DNA of 17,357 nucleotides from a virus (taxonomy: Duplodnaviria; Heunggongvirae; Uroviricota; Caudoviricetes): IMG/VR virus record IMGVR_UViG_2663762648_000006, positions 1-17,357 of that record; one strand, written 5' to 3'. The notes beneath the pieces are model-generated. The model worked only from the letters and a program-made list of their open reading frames with translations, had not been told where the DNA came from and searched no databases. Below, in pieces: positions 3,801 to 17,159 of this stretch; position 1 is the first letter of the stretch; each line of letters begins with the position of its first letter. The translations under genes were made by a program, and so were the position numbers.

Positions 3801-3938
3801 GTTTCGCCCTTATATAAATCAAAGGTGACCTGCATTGAGTATCTCCATGGAATAGATTTGCTGCTGATATGAGACAGATCAATAGACTTCATGAGCCAAC
3901 GGGTGTAGATATTACTTTTTACTTCAGAGGGTTAACTC

Positions 3939-4478
3939 ATGGATATTAAAGATAAAATCAATACCATTTTGTTATGTGACATTGCCATCCACCTAGGTAT
4001 CGAAACTGATATTGATCCACAGCTTGTTAAATATGCTGTGTCATCTGGTAATGATTGGGTTATCAAGGCCGAATATTCACATTTGGATGTTGACGAACCA
4101 AGTAAAGAAGATCGTGATTTTGTTACTGCTGTCTTGAATATGTATCGCGGACTTTCCAATGCTTTCAGGAAACTTAGTGATGACGAGCAAAAAGAATTAG
4201 TCCGTGACCATCATCTAAAAATACATGATGGGGCAATTCAGCTCCCAGGTTTCGACGGTAATAATGAATGCGATTACTTCAGTATCATTGAGGCATATCA
4301 GAAAATTGATCGCTTCCCCGAACAGAAACAGCCCATTGCCAATACTCATTCACGTACAGAACATCTCTATAACGCAATGCTTGATGAGTTTAAGAAAATT
4401 GACGCTGTAAATCGAAGCTGGGATTTATCGAAGGAAGAACTGGCATCCATTCTTTCCACAGCTCCACGCAGTTTCTAA
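3939..4478 (+). CDS. YfbU-family (UPF0304-like) protein; moron antisense to the late operon
   Basis: 179-aa ORF with AGAGGG 8 nt upstream. Local GC is visibly lower than the flanks. Blocks resemble my recollection of E. coli YfbU (NMYRGLS, GFDG, C-terminal LSKEEL...IL). A stem-loop follows the stop. Confidence 0.65.
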   Translation: MDIKDKINTILLCDIAIHLGIETDIDPQLVKYAVSSGNDWVIKAEYSHLDVDEPSKEDRDFVTAVLNMYRGLSNAFRKLSDDEQKELVRDHHLKIHDGAIQLPGFDGNNECDYFSIIEAYQKIDRFPEQKQPIANTHSRTEHLYNAMLDEFKKIDAVNRSWDLSKEELASILSTAPRSF

Positions 4479-4483
4479 GTGCT

Positions 4484-4750
4484 TTAGGCGGGTTTCCAAC
4501 CCGCCTTATTATGCTCGTATATAGAGAAGGAAGCACCCAAATTAACCAGCGCGGATTTCTTTTCCTCAATACGGCTGTTAAGTTCAGCAACTGCATGCGG
4601 GCGTATGGCCTCAAGAAAAGCACTATATTGATAGGCAGACTGGATTGTCACACCAAGCCCTGCACCACTTTCCAGTATACCTTTCTGTCGCTGTAGCTCT
4701 TTCATCTCGTTATAGATGTAATGTGCGTTACTTAGGTTTTCTACGTTCAC
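4484..4750 (-). CDS. Hypothetical protein (GTG start; doubtful)
   Basis: 88-aa ORF co-directional with the late operon, but its 3' end is encoded by the terminator hairpin of the opposite gene and there is no convincing RBS. Confidence 0.3.
   Translation of the reverse strand: MNVENLSNAHYIYNEMKELQRQKGILESGAGLGVTIQSAYQYSAFLEAIRPHAVAELNSRIEEKKSALVNLGASFSIYEHNKAGWKPA
4487..4510 (+). terminator. Stem-loop after the YfbU-like gene (8-bp GC-rich stem, 3-nt loop, then TTATT)
   Basis: ggcgggtt-tcc-aacccgcc is read directly from the sequence. The U-tract is weak. Confidence 0.45.
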
Positions 4751-4905
4751 GCCCTAAGTTCTTCCTGCAGTTAGCCTGCACTGATTTGTTATGCGCCAAT
4801 ATGTCCCGCTTCGTCTGTTGCATTATCATAAGTAATAGCGTAGGTTGACACCTTGGCTCTCTTTCGCCACCGGCGAATCTTTAGCGGATTATCCTTGGCC
4901 GGTTT

Positions 4906-5388
4906 TTATCTGAGACATTGCTCACGAATGTATAGCTGTGCCCCTTCCAGTTGCTTCTGCATCGTCATCAACCGTTCTCTGAGGGTGAAATAATCCCGTT
5001 CAGCGGTGTCTGCCAGTCTGGGGCTGGTTGCATTATCCACGCTGGTGGGTCCGGTGGCTTCACGCACGGCTGCGGAGCAACTGGCATTGACCCGCAGGCG
5101 CTTACGACCAGCGGCAACATCAGCGCGCAGAGTTTCATTTTCAGCTTTCGCATTGGCTAATTCTCTCGAGTACTTTGCATCGAGCGCAGCAACATCACGC
5201 TGACGCTGCTGCATGTCAGCGATGGTGGCGGTCAGCTGCTTCAGCTCACTGACTTTTTTATCACGCTGTTCTTTGTAGGTGATGGCGTTATCACGGTAAT
5301 GATTGACCGCCCACGACAGGCAGACGATGATGCAGATAACCAGAGCATAAATAATCGCGGCGACTCTGCTCACTGATCTATTCCCCAA
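4906..5388 (-). CDS. Rz-like i-spanin
   Basis: 160 aa with an N-terminal TM segment and a charged coiled-coil-like body, immediately after the endolysin, with an embedded +1-frame lipoprotein ORF. Confidence 0.88.
4968..5153 (-). CDS. Rz1-like o-spanin lipoprotein, embedded in Rz
   Basis: 61 aa with a lipobox (LVVSAC) and a proline-rich body, wholly inside the Rz gene in another frame. Confidence 0.82.
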
Positions 5389-5903
5389 CAGGCTAATGCG
5401 CTTTCTTGGTCACGACGAATAACCTGTCCATAGCAGTTATTTGAACGTATGCGGCAATCGCGCCCACCATCTTTTATCCACCAGCGAATCGCCTCGCATG
5501 CGCCCTTACGATCACCAGCATTCAGCCGCTTATAAAACGTCGATGGAAAACACTTACCGGGGCCAATGTTATAGGGACAAAATGACGCGATACCCGCTTT
5601 TTGTGGTTCGGTCAGTGGTACTTTAATATTGCGCTCCACCCATGCCAGCGCCTTATCACGCTCAATGGCGTTGACCTGGTCGCATTTTTCCTTCGACAGT
5701 TTCATACCGGGAAAAACGGGTTTTCCATCCACCATCGTGGCACCCCGACAGATGGTCCAGATGCCGGAACCATCGCGGTATGCCGTTGTGTGGTTACCTT
5801 CTTTTTCATCCAGAAACTGGTCGAGAATATCAGGCGCGGGCGCACCGACGGCAATCAGTGCCAGAACGGCAGCCGACAGGCCGTATCTGATTTTTGCGTT
5901 CAT
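5370..5903 (-). CDS. Endolysin, lysozyme-type with N-terminal signal-anchor-release (SAR) domain
   Basis: 177 aa. A hydrophobic Gly/Ala-rich N-terminus is followed by a T4-lysozyme-like Glu/Asp/Thr motif ([20 protein letters not shown]). It pairs with a pinholin as in phage 21. Confidence 0.88.
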
Positions 5904-5966
5904 GGATATTTATCAGGATTTATCGGTTTCTGCCCACGGACAGGTTTATCTGTTCCGGTCAGTGAC

Positions 5967-6317
5967 TTAAGGTTGTGATTCCGGAGGAGTCTTCAGAGAA
6001 CCAGTAATTCTTCCTGGTAGCTTTCCTTTGTAGGTTATCCACACATTCTGCGCCTCTAAAATTACGGGGCGCTTTTCCGGCGACTGCTCATCCCCTTCAC
6101 ATAACCCGGCAGCAACATCCAGGAAGACCTGTCTGATGCTCCTTCTGGCTGCTGCCTCATAAAACTCCAGCGCGGCACCTTCAACACGGTCCAGCGAGAT
6201 GTCCAGGTCAAAAATTTCACCGTCAAAGCGTTTTTTGTCCCGTAACGCTAAAGTTACCGTAACTTTATTCTCAAAATTGCGGATCCCTTTCACAATCAGT
6301 TCATAGTTTTGAGTCAT
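5967..6317 (-). CDS. Hypothetical protein inserted between holin and endolysin
   Basis: 116-aa soluble ORF with a 4-nt gap to the holin stop. It may correspond to small DUF proteins found between essQ and rrrQ in cryptic prophages, but I could not verify that. Confidence 0.55.
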   Translation of the reverse strand: MTQNYELIVKGIRNFENKVTVTLALRDKKRFDGEIFDLDISLDRVEGAALEFYEAAARRSIRQVFLDVAAGLCEGDEQSPEKRPVILEAQNVWITYKGKLPGRITGSLKTPPESQP

Positions 6318-6321
6318 TGAA

Positions 6322-6537
6322 TTACTCTCCCCGTGCAGCCTTACGCTTGTCTTCTCTGATTTTGAAGTACAGATTTGTCAGATAAGTCAGGAAGCCCAGA
6401 ACCAGACTCCCCAGTACACCAATCGCAGCCCACTGTGACGGACTGACCTGATCAAGCCACTGTAAAAACCAGTAGCCAGCACTGCCTGCGGAGGTGCCAT
6501 AGGCAATGCCCGTTGAAATTTTGTCCATGGATTTCAT
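6322..6537 (-). CDS. S: Class II holin, phage 21 S-type pinholin with dual-start motif
   Basis: 71 aa starting MKSMDK, nearly identical to my recollection of S21 (…[26 protein letters not shown]…). GGAGGTGAG precedes the start. Confidence 0.9.
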
Positions 6538-6829: not shown

Positions 6830-6904
<75 letters not shown>

Positions 6905-6907
6905 ATA

Positions 6908-6983
<76 letters not shown>

Positions 6984-6985
6984 AC

Positions 6986-7062
6986 TGGACCGCCACCGGG
7001 GACTCGAACCTCGCACACTCAACTTAAAGGGTTGACGCTCTTTCCTGATGAACTGGTGACGG
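6986..7062 (-). tRNA. Atypical tRNA-like gene (anticodon loop CCTTTAA, nominally UUU; possibly degenerate)
   Basis: 77 nt with encoded CCA and a T-loop TTCGAGT, but C at position 8, C at position 33 and a T-stem mismatch. It lies 1 nt downstream of the tRNA-Ile-like gene. Confidence 0.4.
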
Positions 7063-7063
7063 T

Positions 7064-7139
7064 TGGTGGCCCTTGCTGGATTTGAACCAGCGACCTGGCG
7101 ATTATGAGTCGCTCGCTCTCACCACTGAGCTAAAGGGCC
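7064..7139 (-). tRNA. ileZ: tRNA with CAU anticodon, tRNA-Ile2 (lysidine) type, ileZ-like
   Basis: 76-nt clean cloverleaf: acceptor GGCCCTT/AAGGGCC, anticodon loop CTCATAA, T-arm GCTGG-TTCAAAT-CCAGC, CCA. It closely resembles my recollection of E. coli ileX and of the tRNA carried by Stx-type phages. Confidence 0.8.
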
Positions 7140-10426: not shown

Positions 10427-10569
10427 CTCCCTGCCCCATCAATAAAAGTTCGGTTCTCTAATAACTAGAGTTAATCAACGGAAAAAACGCCGAAGCGGGT
10501 TAAGTGCGGGTGCGTTGAGGATGCCTGACACATCAGAGGTGGCGAGGGATTTCTCCCCCGCCAGGTCTC

Positions 10570-10782
10570 TTACTCCTCAGGTTCGTAAGCTGTGAAGACA
10601 GCGACCTCCGTCTGGCCGGTTCGGATTCGTACCTCGCAGAGGTCTTTCCTCGTTACCAGTGCCGTCACAATGACGGTTAAACAGATGACGATCAGGGCGA
10701 TTAACATCGCCTTTTGCTGCTTCATAGCCTGCTTCTCCTTGCCTTTCGGCACGTAAGAGGCTAACCTAGATTTGCCGTTCAT
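10570..10782 (-). CDS. hok: Mok/Hok-family type I toxin, copy 1 (Hok/Gef-like 51 aa from the internal ATG at 10725)
   Basis: C-terminal 51 aa (MKQQKAMLIALIVICLTVIVTALVTRKDLCEVRIRTGQTEVAVFTAYEPEE) matches Gef/HokC as I recall it. AAGGAG precedes the internal ATG. The in-frame upstream extension resembles MokC. Confidence 0.85.
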   Translation of the reverse strand: MNGKSRLASYVPKGKEKQAMKQQKAMLIALIVICLTVIVTALVTRKDLCEVRIRTGQTEVAVFTAYEPEE

Positions 10783-10978
10783 AGATTGAGCCTCAGATTA
10801 ATGTTAAGCGTCTTGCAGCAATTCTACTTAAGTATTTTTGATTCTATTCCGGCACCATCTAAAACTTCAAACGCGTTGAAAATAAAAACAAAAACCCGCC
10901 GAAGCGGGTTAAGTGTGGGTGCATTGAGGATGCCTGCCCCATCAGAGGTGGCGAGGGATTTCTCCCCCGCCTGGTCTC

Positions 10979-11191
10979 TTACTCCTCAGGTTCGTAAGCT
11001 GTGAAGACAGCGACCTCCGTCTGGCCGGTTCGGATTCGTACCTCGCAGAGGTCTTTCCTCGTTACCAGTGCCGTCACTATGACGGTTAAACAGATGACGA
11101 TCAGGGCGATTAACATCGCCTTTTGCTGCTTCATAGCCTGCTTCTCCTTGCCTTTCGGCACGTAAGAGGCTAACCTAGATTTGCCGTTCAT
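10979..11191 (-). CDS. hok: Mok/Hok-family type I toxin, copy 2 (identical protein)
   Basis: Translation is identical to copy 1 and lies in the second unit of the tandem duplication. Confidence 0.85.
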   Translation of the reverse strand: MNGKSRLASYVPKGKEKQAMKQQKAMLIALIVICLTVIVTALVTRKDLCEVRIRTGQTEVAVFTAYEPEE

Positions 11192-11387
11192 AGATTGAGC
11201 CTCAGATTAATGTTAAGCGTCTTGCCGGACGCGTAATGTTAACTGGGGCTTTTCTCTATCTGCCTTTGGTGTTCATGCCTGAGGCAGATAGCCTCAAGCA
11301 CCCGCAGCAATTCTACTTAAGTTAGATAAGCTTTTCTATGGTATTCTCTCAGCGTCCCGTAAATACAGTCTCGGCTCATCATTTTTA

Positions 11388-13405: not shown

Positions 13406-14482
13406 TTACCCCCTGAAGCCCGGCGGAATTTCGTTATCCGGTTCAGAAATATGATTCACACAACGCTGGTTGTTCGTGCCGCTTACCGGGAGCAACCAGG
13501 GGTTCTCAAAATTCCGGTCCGGTCCAAAAAACGTCGTCGCTCGCTGAACAAATTCCGTTCCCGTTTTCCCGGTAGCCGCCAAGTATCTTGCGTAACGCCT
13601 CACGCCATCCAGCATGGCCTCTGGTGGCACCCCCTCGCGTAATCTGGCCTTCCAGGCACTGAAAGCGGATTTCTTCGGGTTTGCTCCGGCACGCAACGGG
13701 TACTCCCGCCAGACCTGTTCGAACGCATCCGGATAATCCACTCGTCCCACAGACAGCCCGGTGTTTTCCGGGACTACCCGATCGGCTTTCCGCTGAATGG
13801 CGGAATCGGCTTCAGGCTGCTGCAGTTGGAGTGATTGCTCCGGCCTTGCGGTCATCACCTGCTGCACAGCGCCCGAATCGGCTTTCAGCGCATACGCTGA
13901 ATCGGCTTCCGGTGTCGTGCCTGCTGGCTGACCAGGATTGACGGTCTGAACATCCCCTGCCTGGTTCGTGGCGTTTTTTACGCCATGGACCATAGTGTTT
14001 TGATCTTCTTGATCTGTATCTTTATCTGTATCTTTATCTGTCGTGACTCGTCGTGACATGTGCGTGACATTTCGTGACGCGCCGTGACAATCGCCATTTT
14101 GTTCCCGCTTTCTTTCCCTCTCTCGCTGCGCCCTCTTGCGCTCTGCAGGAGATTTTGCGGTTTGCGAAATATTGCCGTTGTCCTCTTTAAGCACCTGGCG
14201 TTTTTCCCATCCAGTGATTAAATCACCATCAAGTACCCGCCCCTGCATCGTCTGCAAAATTGAATCAATTACCTCTTCTGTCACGTCGAGCGCACTTGCC
14301 AAATCTTCTGTCGTGACATCAATGTGACCTCGCGTGACATTTCGTGACGCGCTCACCAGGAGGTGGATATACACTGCCATCACTGTTGCAATTGGCTGCC
14401 CTGACACCCTGGCAATTGTTCGCCACTTAGGGTCATTTGGCATGTCATGCCATAATCTGAGCCAGGCGTTAGCCATACTCAC
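13406..14482 (-). CDS. Replication initiator (O-like; possibly YdaU/DUF1376-type) containing the origin iterons
   Basis: 358 aa, third gene after the Cro-like and YdaT-like genes as in Rac. Two iteron arrays lie inside the N-terminal half of the gene, as ori-lambda lies inside O. Confidence 0.6.
   Translation of the reverse strand: MSMANAWLRLWHDMPNDPKWRTIARVSGQPIATVMAVYIHLLVSASRNVTRGHIDVTTEDLASALDVTEEVIDSILQTMQGRVLDGDLITGWEKRQVLKEDNGNISQTAKSPAERKRAQRERERKREQNGDCHGASRNVTHMSRRVTTDKDTDKDTDQEDQNTMVHGVKNATNQAGDVQTVNPGQPAGTTPEADSAYALKADSGAVQQVMTARPEQSLQLQQPEADSAIQRKADRVVPENTGLSVGRVDYPDAFEQVWREYPLRAGANPKKSAFSAWKARLREGVPPEAMLDGVRRYARYLAATGKTGTEFVQRATTFFGPDRNFENPWLLPVSGTNNQRCVNHISEPDNEIPPGFRG
14042..14088. 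repeat. Iteron array 1: five CGTGAC repeats at 10-11 bp spacing (putative origin)
   Basis: CGTGAC at 14042, 14052, 14063, 14073 and 14083. A TCTGTATCTTTA tandem repeat lies just upstream (14005-14040). Confidence 0.65.
14280..14348. repeat. Iteron array 2: four to five (C/T)GTGAC repeats including one inverted copy
   Basis: GTCACG at 14280; CGTGAC at 14312, 14333 and 14343; TGTGAC at 14324. The 20-mer CGTGACATTTCGTGACGCGC is shared with array 1. Confidence 0.6.
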
Positions 14483-14547
14483 CTCTTCTGATACCGAATC
14501 TTTTTACTCACGAGTTGCCGGAAGCGATTCGATATGGCTATTGTCAG

Positions 14548-14973
14548 TCAATGTACTGCCACAGCATTTCCTGCCGGGCCACCACGGTTCATCTGATTGA
14601 AACCGGCGATTGCCACTGCGACAAAATCATCAGCGTCTCTCACCAGTCGTTCATGCGTCTCCACCAGTTCCCGAAAATAAGCTGAACTGTGGCTGCGCAT
14701 TCGAGCCACCAGCGGAGGTGGCATTGCCCTTTCGATCGCAGGTAACAACGCCTGAATTTTTTCAACAGCGTCAGGGGTGTCTTTATCCAGCCAACGGAAA
14801 ATCTTTTGGGTGTTGAGATAAAGCGTGTTGTGCTTGCTGTCGTTATGCAGAACCGGAAACGTCATTCCCAGTTCGAAATAAACCCTGGTTATTTCAGCTG
14901 CCGGAACTTTTTCACCGTCCGGATGCGCCCAGGCTTTCATCGCCATGCGGATGTGTTCATGCTTGATTTTCAT
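14548..14973 (-). CDS. ydaT: YdaT-like protein (CII-position regulator of Rac-type prophages)
   Basis: 141 aa starting MKIKHEHI, as I recall for Rac YdaT; it directly follows the Cro-like gene. Confidence 0.7.
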   Translation of the reverse strand: MKIKHEHIRMAMKAWAHPDGEKVPAAEITRVYFELGMTFPVLHNDSKHNTLYLNTQKIFRWLDKDTPDAVEKIQALLPAIERAMPPPLVARMRSHSSAYFRELVETHERLVRDADDFVAVAIAGFNQMNRGGPAGNAVAVH

Positions 14974-15233
14974 GAATCAACCCCCGCCGATGGTTGTGTG
15001 TTAGCCTGAAACTCAGCAGGCAAGCCGTCAGTTGGGTTGGGGTAGGTTTTACTGTCAATCTCATGTGGGGTCACCACCCATCCCGTTGCTTCACACCAAC
15101 GTAATATTTTTTCTCCTGTAAGTTTTGCACGCCCCGTTATAACGTGGCTGACCATCCCTTGGGATGCGCCAACAATCTCAGCAAATGAACTCTGGGTTAT
15201 ATGAAAATGATGCAAATATTCTCCAAGATTCAT
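14970..15233 (-). CDS. Cro/YdaS-like HTH regulator
   Basis: 87 aa from the ATG at 15233 (the ORF extends to a TTG at 15260). HTH-like segment SQGMVSHVITGRAKL. Divergent from the repressor gene. Confidence 0.7.
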   Translation of the reverse strand: MNLGEYLHHFHITQSSFAEIVGASQGMVSHVITGRAKLTGEKILRWCEATGWVVTPHEIDSKTYPNPTDGLPAEFQANTQPSAGVDS

Positions 15234-15260: not shown

Positions 15261-15344
15261 TGCATAATTAATAGCACTGTTATTTTTAAAAGTAAATAGT
15301 GATACTATTTCAAAGTGATTAGCAATCTTATTAGAATTGGATGT
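15261..15344. promoter_or_regulatory. Immunity-region intergenic spacer with divergent promoters and operator-like repeats
   Basis: 84-bp AT-rich spacer between divergent HTH genes, with repeated AGTGAT/AGCACT half-site-like motifs. Confidence 0.45.
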
Positions 15345-15845
15345 ATGAAAAGAAAATCATTGTCAGACACCGACCTCAACGCCGCCAGAAGACTGAAAGA
15401 AATCTGGATGGCAAAGAAATCTCAGTTGGGATTGACTCAGGAACGTGCGGCGGAAATTATGGGGTTTTCAACACAAGGGGCGGTAAGTCACTACCTAAAT
15501 GGTCAAACCCCACTAAACCTTGAGGCTGTTCTAAAGTTTGCTGGCTTACTGAAAGTTCCCCCTGAGTCAATCAGGCCAGACATGGTAGATTTGCTGCAAA
15601 TTGCAAGGATGTATTGTCGAGAACCACAGCAAGATAACATAGTCGCATTACCAGCAGACACAGAACAAACAGAGGATGAACTACCGTTTGCCGTAGAGCC
15701 GATGGAACGAGATTTAATCCATACGTTCAGAGCTTTTCCGAAAGAAGATCAAGAACACATGCTTCAGGAGATGAAAGATAAAAAAGAATCAATGGATCGT
15801 ACGGTTGCGCGGTGGTTAGCTGCACAAAAAGGCCGTCGCGCCTAA
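15345..15845 (+). CDS. Prophage repressor, HTH type (RacR/CI-like, apparently without an S24 peptidase domain)
   Basis: 166 aa from the ATG at 15345. HTH segment LTQERAAEIMGFSTQGAVSHYLNGQ; the C-terminus is acidic and shows no Ser/Lys peptidase motif. Confidence 0.7.
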   Translation: MKRKSLSDTDLNAARRLKEIWMAKKSQLGLTQERAAEIMGFSTQGAVSHYLNGQTPLNLEAVLKFAGLLKVPPESIRPDMVDLLQIARMYCREPQQDNIVALPADTEQTEDELPFAVEPMERDLIHTFRAFPKEDQEHMLQEMKDKKESMDRTVARWLAAQKGRRA

Positions 15846-15864
15846 ATCAGAGGAGATATGTAAA

Positions 15865-16059
15865 ATGAGTACAGTCCTTTCCCCAATGGTTTCAGAATTT
15901 GAGACAGTTGAGCAAGAAAATAGTTACAACGAATGGCTGCGGGCCAAAGTAGCAGCAAGCCTCGCGGATCCCCGCCCGGCGATTCCGCATGATGAGGTAA
16001 TGGCGGAAATGGAACAAATTATTGCCCAAATTGCTGCTGCAACTCACAGAGGTGAATAA
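15865..16059 (+). CDS. Type II antitoxin, ParD/Phd-like
   Basis: 64-aa acidic protein whose stop overlaps the start of a ParE/RelE-like toxin (TAATG). Confidence 0.65.
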   Translation: MSTVLSPMVSEFETVEQENSYNEWLRAKVAASLADPRPAIPHDEVMAEMEQIIAQIAAATHRGE

Positions 16060-16349
16060 TGTTACCCGTTTTATGGCTACCATCTGCTCGTGATGATTTG
16101 CGCCAGATCGTAGCCTACATAGCTAAAGAAAATCCCGCGGCAGCACGCAGAATGAAAATTCGAATTGAAACATCCGTTTTGCCGCTCACAGAGCATCCTT
16201 ACCTGTATCCTCCAAGCGAGCGAGTTCTTGGTCTTCGTGAAATTGTAACTCATCCTAACTACATCATCCTTTACCGAGTAACAGCATCAAGCATAGAAGT
16301 AGTAAATATTGTGCATTCTCGAAGACAGTATCCAGGCAAAAACAGTTAA
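16059..16349 (+). CDS. Type II toxin, ParE/RelE family
   Basis: 96 aa with the pattern LPVLWLPSARDDLRQIVAYIAKENPAAA...REIVTHPNYIILYRV typical of ParE/RelE toxins. Confidence 0.75.
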   Translation: MLPVLWLPSARDDLRQIVAYIAKENPAAARRMKIRIETSVLPLTEHPYLYPPSERVLGLREIVTHPNYIILYRVTASSIEVVNIVHSRRQYPGKNS

Positions 16350-16365
16350 TTATTCCCGCCGACAG

Positions 16366-16390
16366 AACCACCTTAGGGTGGTTTTTTCTT
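16366..16390 (+). terminator. Rho-independent terminator after the toxin-antitoxin pair
   Basis: AACCACC-ttag-GGTGGTT followed by TTTTTTC. Confidence 0.75.
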
Positions 16391-16629
16391 GCCCCAACAA
16401 AAAACAATAGCGATGCTATTTACATCAAAAAAAAATAATGATGCTATTGTTTCAGGCGTCAACCCACCCCGCCCCACAGAATGCAGGGCAATACTTCGAG
16501 TTACCTGGCAGTGGTCAGGGGTTAAATAGCCAGCCCGAGGCGTAAGAACATGACGGCAGGGTTCAATCTTTAACTATGCAGCAGGTTTTTTGTTCCGCCA
16601 CCCCGGCGTTAAGGGGAAATGAGGTCAGC

Positions 16630-16782
16630 ATGGATACTATCGATCTTGGCAACAACGAATCTCTGGTGTGCGGCGTGTTCCCTAACCAGGATGGAACGTT
16701 TACCGCCATGACGTATACCAAAAGCAAAACGTTTAAAACCGAATCTGGCGCGCGTTGCTGGTTAGCCAGAAACACTGACTGA
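16630..16782 (+). CDS. Small hypothetical protein (possibly YdaF-like)
   Basis: 50 aa from the internal ATG at 16630, with GAGG 6 nt upstream. The stop overlaps the next start. Confidence 0.45.
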   Translation: MDTIDLGNNESLVCGVFPNQDGTFTAMTYTKSKTFKTESGARCWLARNTD

Positions 16783-17159
16783 TGAGGCTGACGATGGAAT
16801 TTAAAGATTTACCGTCTGATGTACAGAAAACAGCAGCTCATACATTGCATTCTGTGCTGCGAGAAATCGGGAAAGATATTGCAAGCGAGCCAGCAAAAGA
16901 TCTGGCCCGGAAAATCAAGACCGCTTTCGTTGAGCTTTATAATGTTGGCACTGACTCTGAAACTGTCGAGACCAAGACCGTAAGTTCACCAATATTCTCA
17001 CTTGAGCCAAGCGTATTATCAGGTGAAATATGCACCGAGATTTCCAGCGAACTGCTTCCGGTAATACGAGAAGCAATTCGCCGTCGCGGTTTGGATGGAA
17101 GTTATGATCATGACGTTCTGCAAGTTCTCAGGACAATGGTGACTTCACTGGGGATTTGA
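16782..17159 (+). CDS. Hypothetical early-left protein
   Basis: 125-aa ORF, translationally coupled to the preceding small gene. Confidence 0.5.
   Translation: MRLTMEFKDLPSDVQKTAAHTLHSVLREIGKDIASEPAKDLARKIKTAFVELYNVGTDSETVETKTVSSPIFSLEPSVLSGEICTEISSELLPVIREAIRRRGLDGSYDHDVLQVLRTMVTSLGI

Follow-up and report, generated by a model that had tools for sequence, protein, structure and literature searches.

The window analysed here, the whole 17,357-nt stretch of DNA from a Caudoviricetes record, carries three genes in tandem on the + strand: a PaaR-type prophage repressor gene (15345–15845), a paaA-type antitoxin gene (15865–16059) and a parE-type toxin gene (16059–16349). A sequence-only reading had marked the last two as a toxin–antitoxin (TA) pair, and their open reading frames, of 64 and 96 aa, were recovered at exactly the coordinates and lengths it gave. 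The repressor combines a lambda-CI-like N-terminal helix-turn-helix (HTH) with a PaaR-type C-terminal domain. Its start is most likely the ATG at 15345, giving 166 aa, in agreement with the RefSeq start in the near-identical locus of E. coli FDAARGOS_944. The antitoxin ATG lies 19 nt beyond the repressor stop codon (15843–15845), and on direct reading this gap contains a Shine-Dalgarno sequence alone (GAGGAG, 15850–15855, 9 nt upstream of the antitoxin ATG). The antitoxin stop codon TAA (16057–16059) and the toxin ATG (16059–16061) share one base (TAATG), and a second Shine-Dalgarno sequence (GAGG, 16049–16052) is located 6 nt upstream of the toxin start. The translational coupling proposed for the two genes is visible as the TAATG overlap itself.

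From the repressor start to the toxin stop, a consensus scan detected no terminator on the + strand, and it reported nothing after the toxin gene. Folding of 16345–16400 revealed a 9-bp hairpin in which 16364–16372 pairs with 16377–16385 and runs into TTTTTTCTT, with a folding energy of −15.1 kcal/mol (z = −3.0; equally good folding in 1 of 200 shuffles). We take this hairpin and its T-run (16364–16390, + strand), which occupy the position of lambda t_imm, as the putative terminator of a repressor–antitoxin–toxin transcript. It was probably missed by the consensus scan because its stem reaches into the T-run. Folding therefore supplies the terminator of its own with which the pair had been credited. 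An Rfam search found no known RNA family in or near the pair; sok and tRNAs were the only RNA families in the window, all of them elsewhere. Both reading frames are real genes under strong purifying selection, since their Pfam matches reach 3e-23 (antitoxin) and 1.8e-17 (toxin) and dN/dS against four other diverged alleles is 0.05–0.16 for both, with synonymous change near saturation.

The surroundings are those of a lambdoid immunity region. On the opposite strand, a divergent early-right operon contains a ydaT-like gene (CII analogue; 14548–14973, − strand) and an immunity-specific ydaS-like gene (Cro analogue; 14970–15233, − strand). The ydaT-like product matches Pfam YdaT_toxin (5.1e-09) and PHROG 163 'CII-like transcriptional activator' (3.1e-40), and shares 77–87% identity with its YdaT counterparts in the reference loci described below. 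The ydaS-like product matches Pfam HTH_3 and PHROG 35; it shares 83% identity with YdaS of E. coli O104:H4, which has the same repressor type, and ~29% with YdaS of the PaaR1 and PaaR2 loci. The ydaS/ydaT junction carries a perfect YdaT operator, TTGATT-N6-AATCAA (14963–14980), the single match in the window even with up to 1 mismatch allowed; this is the YdaT operator published for CP-933P (PMC9986795). The CP-933P YdaT raises the activity of a promoter that is located between ydaS and ydaT and directed towards the repressor and TA genes (PMC8630535).

The DNA separating ydaS from the repressor gene contains two copies of a 15-bp palindrome, AATARYNNTRYTATT (15270–15284 and 15295–15309), and two more copies follow beyond the terminator, ahead of ydfA (16406–16420 and 16434–16448). 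Even with 1 mismatch allowed, a search of the 17.4 kb returned these four sites and no others, against an expected 0.28. Since the motif was derived from those same four sites, the weight falls on the lack of further matches, on its recurrence at equivalent positions in the FDAARGOS_944 locus and the 80%-identical O104:H4 locus, and on its absence from loci with other repressor types. We read the sites as candidate O_R and O_L operators, to which binding is predicted; for CP-933P, too, an O_L/P_L analogue has been described, under repression by both PaaR2 and YdaS (PMC8630535). A consensus scan also placed a P_RM-like promoter, TTCAAA-17-TAGAAT (15309–15337, + strand), directly upstream of the repressor gene. 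Because the number of promoter-like sites in this region equals chance, the putative P_RM is called from position and analogy. Only 7 nt separate the end of its −10 element from the repressor ATG, so that a transcript from this promoter would have no leader; leaderless translation has been shown for both paaR2 and lambda cI (PMC8630535).

Downstream of the O_L-like sites, the first early-left gene is ydfA (DUF1391; 16630–16782, + strand; Pfam 3.3e-28), with a likely start at ATG 16630 by homology with K-12 ydfA. From 16592 onward the DNA is 90% identical to ydfA of the K-12 Qin prophage, and the DNA common to thousands of other prophages starts at ~16460, just beyond the O_L sites. The pair had been placed between a prophage repressor and the early-left genes, and the ydfA…dicB genes that follow it uphold this position.

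The antitoxin matches Pfam PaaA2 (PF21217) at 3e-23, its sole Pfam family at E ≤ 0.01, and aligns with the PaaA2 chains of PDB 3ZBE and 5CW7 (1.4e-23). A ParD-like antitoxin had been proposed, to be checked by an HMM search for ParD. Pfam and NCBIfam searches at E ≤ 0.01 found neither a ParD nor a ribbon-helix-helix domain in the 64-aa protein, and a ParD or ribbon-helix-helix antitoxin was rejected on these domain searches. The protein is assigned by domain content to the PaaA2 family, not to ParD. No DNA-binding domain was detected in it by these searches, and PaaA2 itself has been described as lacking any DNA-binding domain (PMC8630535). The toxin fared differently: an HMM search had likewise been proposed for it, and its ParE-family membership is confirmed by a full-length match to Pfam ParE_toxin (PF05016, 1.8e-17) and by a PDB match to the crystallised ParE2 of E. 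coli O157:H7 (5CW7_B; structures 5CW7 and 5CZE) at 6.7e-37 and ~67% identity. Overexpressed ParE2 induces SOS and co-localises with the nucleoid (PMC8630535), and it is reported neither to bind GyrA59 nor to inhibit gyrase (PMC10886550).

To place the locus, we drew reference loci from five pair-carrying E. coli genomes, including O157:H7-lineage, O104:H4, ATCC 25922 and O18 strains. All five share one layout, with ydaT–ydaS on one strand, repressor–antitoxin–toxin on the other, and then ydfA…dicB. Identity to the window falls from the FDAARGOS_944 locus (antitoxin 98%, toxin 100%, repressor 99%, YdaS 99%) through O104:H4 (84%, 88%, 78% and 83%, respectively) and a second EDL933-lineage allele from ATCC 43894 (78%, 83%, 42% and 29%) to the PaaR2/A2/E2 allele of ATCC 25922 (67%, 67%, 30% and 30%). 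The FDAARGOS_944 toxin, 100% identical to that of the window, is encoded at a CDS annotated WP_014334020.1. Two features mark the ATCC 25922 locus as the published allele: its ParE matches the PDB ParE2 chain at 100% identity, and its regulator opens with MQKKE, the N-terminal sequence established for PaaR2 (PMC8630535). The ATCC 43894 allele is presumably paaR1-paaA1-parE1 of CP-933M, assigned by exclusion as the non-ParE2 copy in that lineage.

Comparison of the TA-linked repressors places their similarity at the C-terminal end. Residues 1–81 of the window repressor (11–91 of the 176-aa open reading frame that was searched) align at 2.5e-09 with the N-terminal domain of lambda CI, and the protein matches Pfam HTH_3 (9.1e-09), while its C-terminal part yields a weak match to NCBIfam DicA (8.8e-08). 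Over the last 47 aa, identity is 79%, 68% and 49% to the O104, PaaR1-like and PaaR2 repressors, respectively, versus 15–30% to DicA-type repressors from loci without a TA pair. The N-terminal DNA-binding parts are only 17–20% identical to those of PaaR1 and PaaR2, the O104 type being a related exception. The N-terminal domain is therefore scored, by sequence, as unrelated to PaaR1 and PaaR2, so that regulatory details may differ. Because the aligned repressors share a C-terminus and have unrelated N-terminal parts, the window can be read as a third immunity type of one module, in which the DNA-binding domain, Cro analogue and operators differ, and the repressor C-terminus and TA pair are conserved. 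The repressor is more than a neighbour of the pair: it is the third, regulatory part of a three-gene module that is already known.

That module was described in E. coli O157:H7 by Hallez et al. 2010, as cited in PMC8630535 and PMC4803016, and its paaR2-paaA2-parE2 copy in cryptic prophage CP-933P was analysed in depth by Jurenas et al. 2021 (PMC8630535). According to the latter, the three genes form one operon repressed by PaaR2; ParE2 is toxic and is neutralised by its antitoxin; PaaA2 is a substrate for degradation by ClpAP and ClpXP; carriage of the locus makes an unstable plasmid more stable; and PaaR2, YdaS and YdaT are the CI, Cro and CII analogues. In CP-933P, ParE2 activity was undetected in either transcriptional state (PMC8630535). 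The two O157:H7 paralogues PaaA1 and PaaA2 do not cross-neutralise (PMC4803016). The authors proposed that the TA pair had inserted into the immunity region and guards against its loss or replacement (PMC8630535). The window has a toxin close to ParE1 and ParE2 with a coupled PaaA2-family antitoxin upstream, an HTH regulator upstream on the same strand whose N-terminal DNA-binding domain is CI-like and of a different type, and a position in a lambdoid immunity region opposite ydaS–ydaT and upstream of early-left genes. We therefore assign it, with a probability of roughly 0.85, to the PaaR-PaaA-ParE module in the immunity region of a Qin/CP-933P-like lambdoid E. coli prophage. The original finding is correct, and the arrangement is one already known and experimentally characterised in close homologues.

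The 19-nt gap, the lack of a detected + strand terminator before 16364 and the presence of one after the toxin gene are compatible with a single operon, and by analogy with CP-933P the three genes are probably co-transcribed. In a lysogen, the repressor gene (15345–15845) would be transcribed from the P_RM-like promoter, probably as a leaderless mRNA, and the transcript would run on through paaA and parE to end at the 16364–16390 terminator. The small PaaA, which lacks a DNA-binding domain and by homology would be labile, would wrap around ParE and neutralise it. Transcription would be controlled not by the antitoxin but by the prophage regulators (the repressor, Cro-like YdaS and CII-like YdaT) acting at O_R, at the O_L copy just past the terminator and at the YdaT site. 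If the immunity region were lost or replaced, PaaA would decay, and ParE, DNA-damaging and SOS-inducing, would kill or arrest the cell. Through this decay of PaaA and release of ParE upon loss of the region, the module is proposed to stabilise the prophage region, and a stabilising role of the pair is probable by analogy. We infer all of these functional steps for the window allele from its characterised homologues, and the purifying selection on both genes lends indirect support to an active toxin and antitoxin.

The same molecular parts could also serve phage exclusion or abortive infection as their main role in place of addiction, the pair being expressed in the lysogen and ParE release being triggered by a superinfecting phage; this reading concerns role only and is compatible with those parts. 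The slot occupied by the pair, after the repressor gene and before t_imm and O_L/P_L, is that of rexA-rexB in lambda, an analogy also drawn in PMC8630535, and the repressor–TA–terminator–O_L layout is indeed present in the window. Against it, the PADLOC-DB 2.0 models returned 0 families for all three proteins, whereas plasmid stabilisation, that is, addiction, is the phenotype actually demonstrated for a homologue (PMC8630535). Membership of the repressor, antitoxin and toxin in a defence system was rejected on the PADLOC-DB 2.0 result, and our literature search found no defence phenotype for the PaaA-ParE clade. The abortive-infection role suggested for the pair thus gains neither a PADLOC match nor literature support, and we regard exclusion as an improbable main function.

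Considerably less probable is that the genes are an inactive remnant carried along in a decaying cryptic prophage. Many such prophages are cryptic, and in the closest genome, FDAARGOS_944, several neighbouring phage genes are frameshifted or interrupted by IS elements, but both reading frames are intact, their coupling is preserved, the dN/dS values given above indicate constraint, and the toxin is 100% identical to the FDAARGOS_944 copy. A canonical two-gene ParD/ParE system, in which a ribbon-helix-helix antitoxin and its toxin autoregulate their own promoter independently of the repressor, receives marginally less credence still: the toxin does belong to the ParE family, but the antitoxin, at 64 aa, aligns with PaaA2 and yields that family alone, and the upstream gap holds a Shine-Dalgarno sequence and nothing else. 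The only promoter-like site within the repressor gene (15432–15460) lies ~400 nt upstream of the pair and is a consensus match at chance level. The domain search largely refutes this reading. Least probable of all is a RelB/RelE-type mRNA interferase pair whose toxin cleaves ribosome-bound mRNA, a reading suggested by NCBIfam NF050103 'RelB family antitoxin' (3.3e-27) for the antitoxin and by the RelE_StbE subfamily for the toxin (29.3 bits, barely above the 27.9-bit cut-off), but the toxin is ~67% identical to the SOS-inducing, nucleoid-co-localised ParE2 and gave no BLASTP alignment with K-12 RelE at E ≤ 100, so that the marginal RelE_StbE match is best taken as a superfamily label and a RelE-type toxin proper was rejected.

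In K-12 Qin, the gap between dicA and ydfA measures 166 nt and holds no TA pair, versus 784 nt between the repressor and ydfA in the window. The Qin arrangement, lacking the pair, recurs in three further E. coli loci whose repressors are of other types; the TA-less comparators found are Qin/DicA-type prophages. Alignment of dicA with the window repressor at the DNA level detected nothing, and only the ydfA region aligned. Among 5,426 complete E. coli genomes, the TA pair has a match in 842, and a query reaching from the repressor gene to ydfA is matched in some part, chiefly around ydfA, in 4,435; the exact allele of the window (at least 99% identity) is present in 2. The N-terminal part of this repressor type occurs in 72 genomes, and the whole block also in 72, an equality of counts and not a per-record comparison; as judged from these equal counts, no copy of this repressor type without the TA pair (an 'empty site') was seen. 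Among sequenced phages, tblastn gave two matches, one of them (phage Evi) a ParE2-type allele, so the window allele is absent from the phage collection.

Outside enterobacteria, ParE homologues with 43–73% identity were found in Paracoccus, Acetobacter, Komagataeibacter, Pseudomonas, Sphingomonas and metagenome-assembled genomes. A 61–66-aa PaaA2-family reading frame precedes the toxin gene in all 7 of the 7 distant loci for which the upstream region is present. The genes farther upstream are mutually unrelated: reading frames judged by eye to be CheY/CheZ-like, one judged by eye to be a substrate-binding protein, a plasmid initiator of the Rep3 family supported by a Pfam match and, at a single locus, an HTH_17 protein. 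The two-gene cassette is therefore mobile in its own right; in distant Proteobacteria it stands alone, on plasmids as well as chromosomes, and there too the antitoxin lacks a DNA-binding domain. As the antitoxin lacks this domain outside prophages too, the data suggest that phages captured the cassette behind a repressor gene, rather than that a DNA-binding domain of the antitoxin decayed within a prophage, which agrees with the published hypothesis.

These comparisons also raise a more tentative idea. The TA pair and the last ~47 repressor codons may form one conserved block, onto which at least three unrelated immunity specificities would have been recombined, each pairing a repressor DNA-binding domain with a matching Cro-like YdaS and a separate set of operators; the recombined specificities could then be the footprint of addiction constraining immunity swaps. 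We regard this as possible but less likely than not. If true, the pattern would lend natural support to the hypothesis, already in print, that addiction forces immunity-region recombinants to retain the module, and the TA pair would shape where lambdoid immunity swaps can break.

The practical value of the locus lies in annotation. RefSeq annotates the pair as a type II TA pair under the name 'RelB/RelE-ParE', PHROGs v4 lists both the antitoxin and the toxin family as 'unknown function', and in phage Evi the toxin gene carries no annotation; for these reasons, pipelines can miss the PaaR-PaaA-ParE module. Insertion behind the repressor and stabilisation of the immunity region are ideas already in print, and the window opens no new question on them. 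Particular to the window is a third allele of this known kind of module, distinguished by a repressor whose DNA-binding domain is of another, CI-like type and by a candidate operator motif of its own, which could serve to test the generality of the CP-933P regulatory model and cross-protection between the antitoxins of different alleles.

Set beside known systems, the locus resembles canonical ParD-ParE (RK2, Vibrio cholerae ParDE2) in its ParE-fold toxin and its small, coupled upstream antitoxin, but ParD has an autoregulating ribbon-helix-helix DNA-binding domain where PaaA has none. The ParE toxins of RK2 and Vibrio are gyrase inhibitors; ParE2, from the clade of the window toxin, is reported not to be one (PMC10886550). 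The K-12 Qin region dicC-dicA-ydfABC-dicF-dicB is a homologous immunity region with homologous early-left genes, and DicA shares its C-terminal domain distantly with the window repressor (23% identity). In architecture, lambda cI-rexA-rexB-t_imm-O_L/P_L matches the window order of repressor, PaaA, ParE, terminator, O_L and early-left genes; lambda has an accessory pair that is expressed in the lysogen and co-transcribed with a leaderless repressor gene, and the TA pair occupies the rexAB slot, although RexAB is unrelated in protein to PaaA/ParE and functions in phage exclusion in lambda.

The closest characterised TA allele is that of ATCC 43894, presumably CP-933M, by its antitoxin, its toxin and its repressor C-terminus; its neighbouring genes are alike, but its repressor N-terminal domain and YdaS are unrelated to those of the window (20% and 29% identity). 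A further close parallel is paaR2-paaA2-parE2 of CP-933P/Sp12 (Hallez 2010, Sterckx 2016, Jurenas 2021). The two differ in the repressor, which has 166 aa in the window versus 123 aa in PaaR2 and is 30% identical overall, and in the operator, which is AATARYNNTRYTATT in the window, versus a palindrome in CP-933P whose half-sites follow the published consensus GTTTAGTAA. They agree in gene order, orientation and the divergent ydaS–ydaT genes, in the PaaA2 and ParE families and the repressor C-terminal domain, in the YdaT operator at the ydaS/ydaT junction, and in having a further group of operators beyond the toxin gene, with ydfA…dicB coming next.

The repressor encoded at 15345–15845 is a mosaic. 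In comparison with the repressor loci L002–L009, its N-terminus carries a lambda CI-like HTH, whereas its last ~47 residues are common only to repressors that precede the toxin–antitoxin (TA) pair (49–79% identity); the same C-terminal part is only 15–30% identical to DicA-type repressors without the pair. At the DNA level, homology to the EDL933-lineage locus starts at position 15718, within the repressor gene. Both TA families of 15865–16349 are represented in PHROGs v4 (phrog_3936 and phrog_2455), where they are listed as of "unknown function". In the deposited genome of Escherichia phage Evi (LR597642.1, record positions 24917–25192), the PaaR2-like gene is annotated as "putative regulator" and the PaaA2-like gene as "hypothetical", and the ParE2-like gene carries no annotation at all.

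Free-standing two-gene paaA–parE cassettes were also observed in distant Proteobacteria, namely Paracoccus, Acetobacter, Komagataeibacter, Pseudomonas, Sphingomonas and MAGs (L010–L017). Their antitoxin is of the same short PaaA2-family type as that of the prophage, and no upstream regulator conserved among these loci was found; at one of them, the cassette adjoins a Rep3 plasmid initiator. A study of paaR2–paaA2–parE2 in CP-933P of E. coli O157:H7 asks whether PaaA lost a DNA-binding domain after entering the prophage (PMC8630535), a question to which these cassettes are relevant.

A tandem duplication of the hok/sok region was observed on the minus strand (10482–11303), with 97% identity over 300 nt between 10482–10781 and 10891–11190 at a spacing of 409 nt. 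Rfam matched sok at 11129–11303 (minus strand, 111.7 bits) and a second copy at 10720–10897 (minus strand, 43.7 bits, sub-threshold). Because the region is duplicated, the prophage may carry two type I TA copies besides the type II pair; the FDAARGOS_944 locus (L001), its closest annotated relative, has a single hokD.

After ydfA lies a 125-aa ORF of unknown function (16782–17159, plus strand; phrog_33007, 4.9e-80) with no Pfam match, where both L001 and K-12 Qin have ydfB and ydfC. Three clustered tRNA genes (6833–7139, minus strand) correspond to an L001 cluster with four annotated tRNAs (Gly, Thr, Lys and Ile), flanked there by the Q antiterminator and lysis genes. Megablast returned no L001 counterpart for 3801–4935, 5373–6334 and 14001–14547; L001 has an additional "ECs1072 family" gene between the replication gene and ydaT that the window lacks. 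These segmental differences between the window and L001 are ordinary lambdoid mosaicism.
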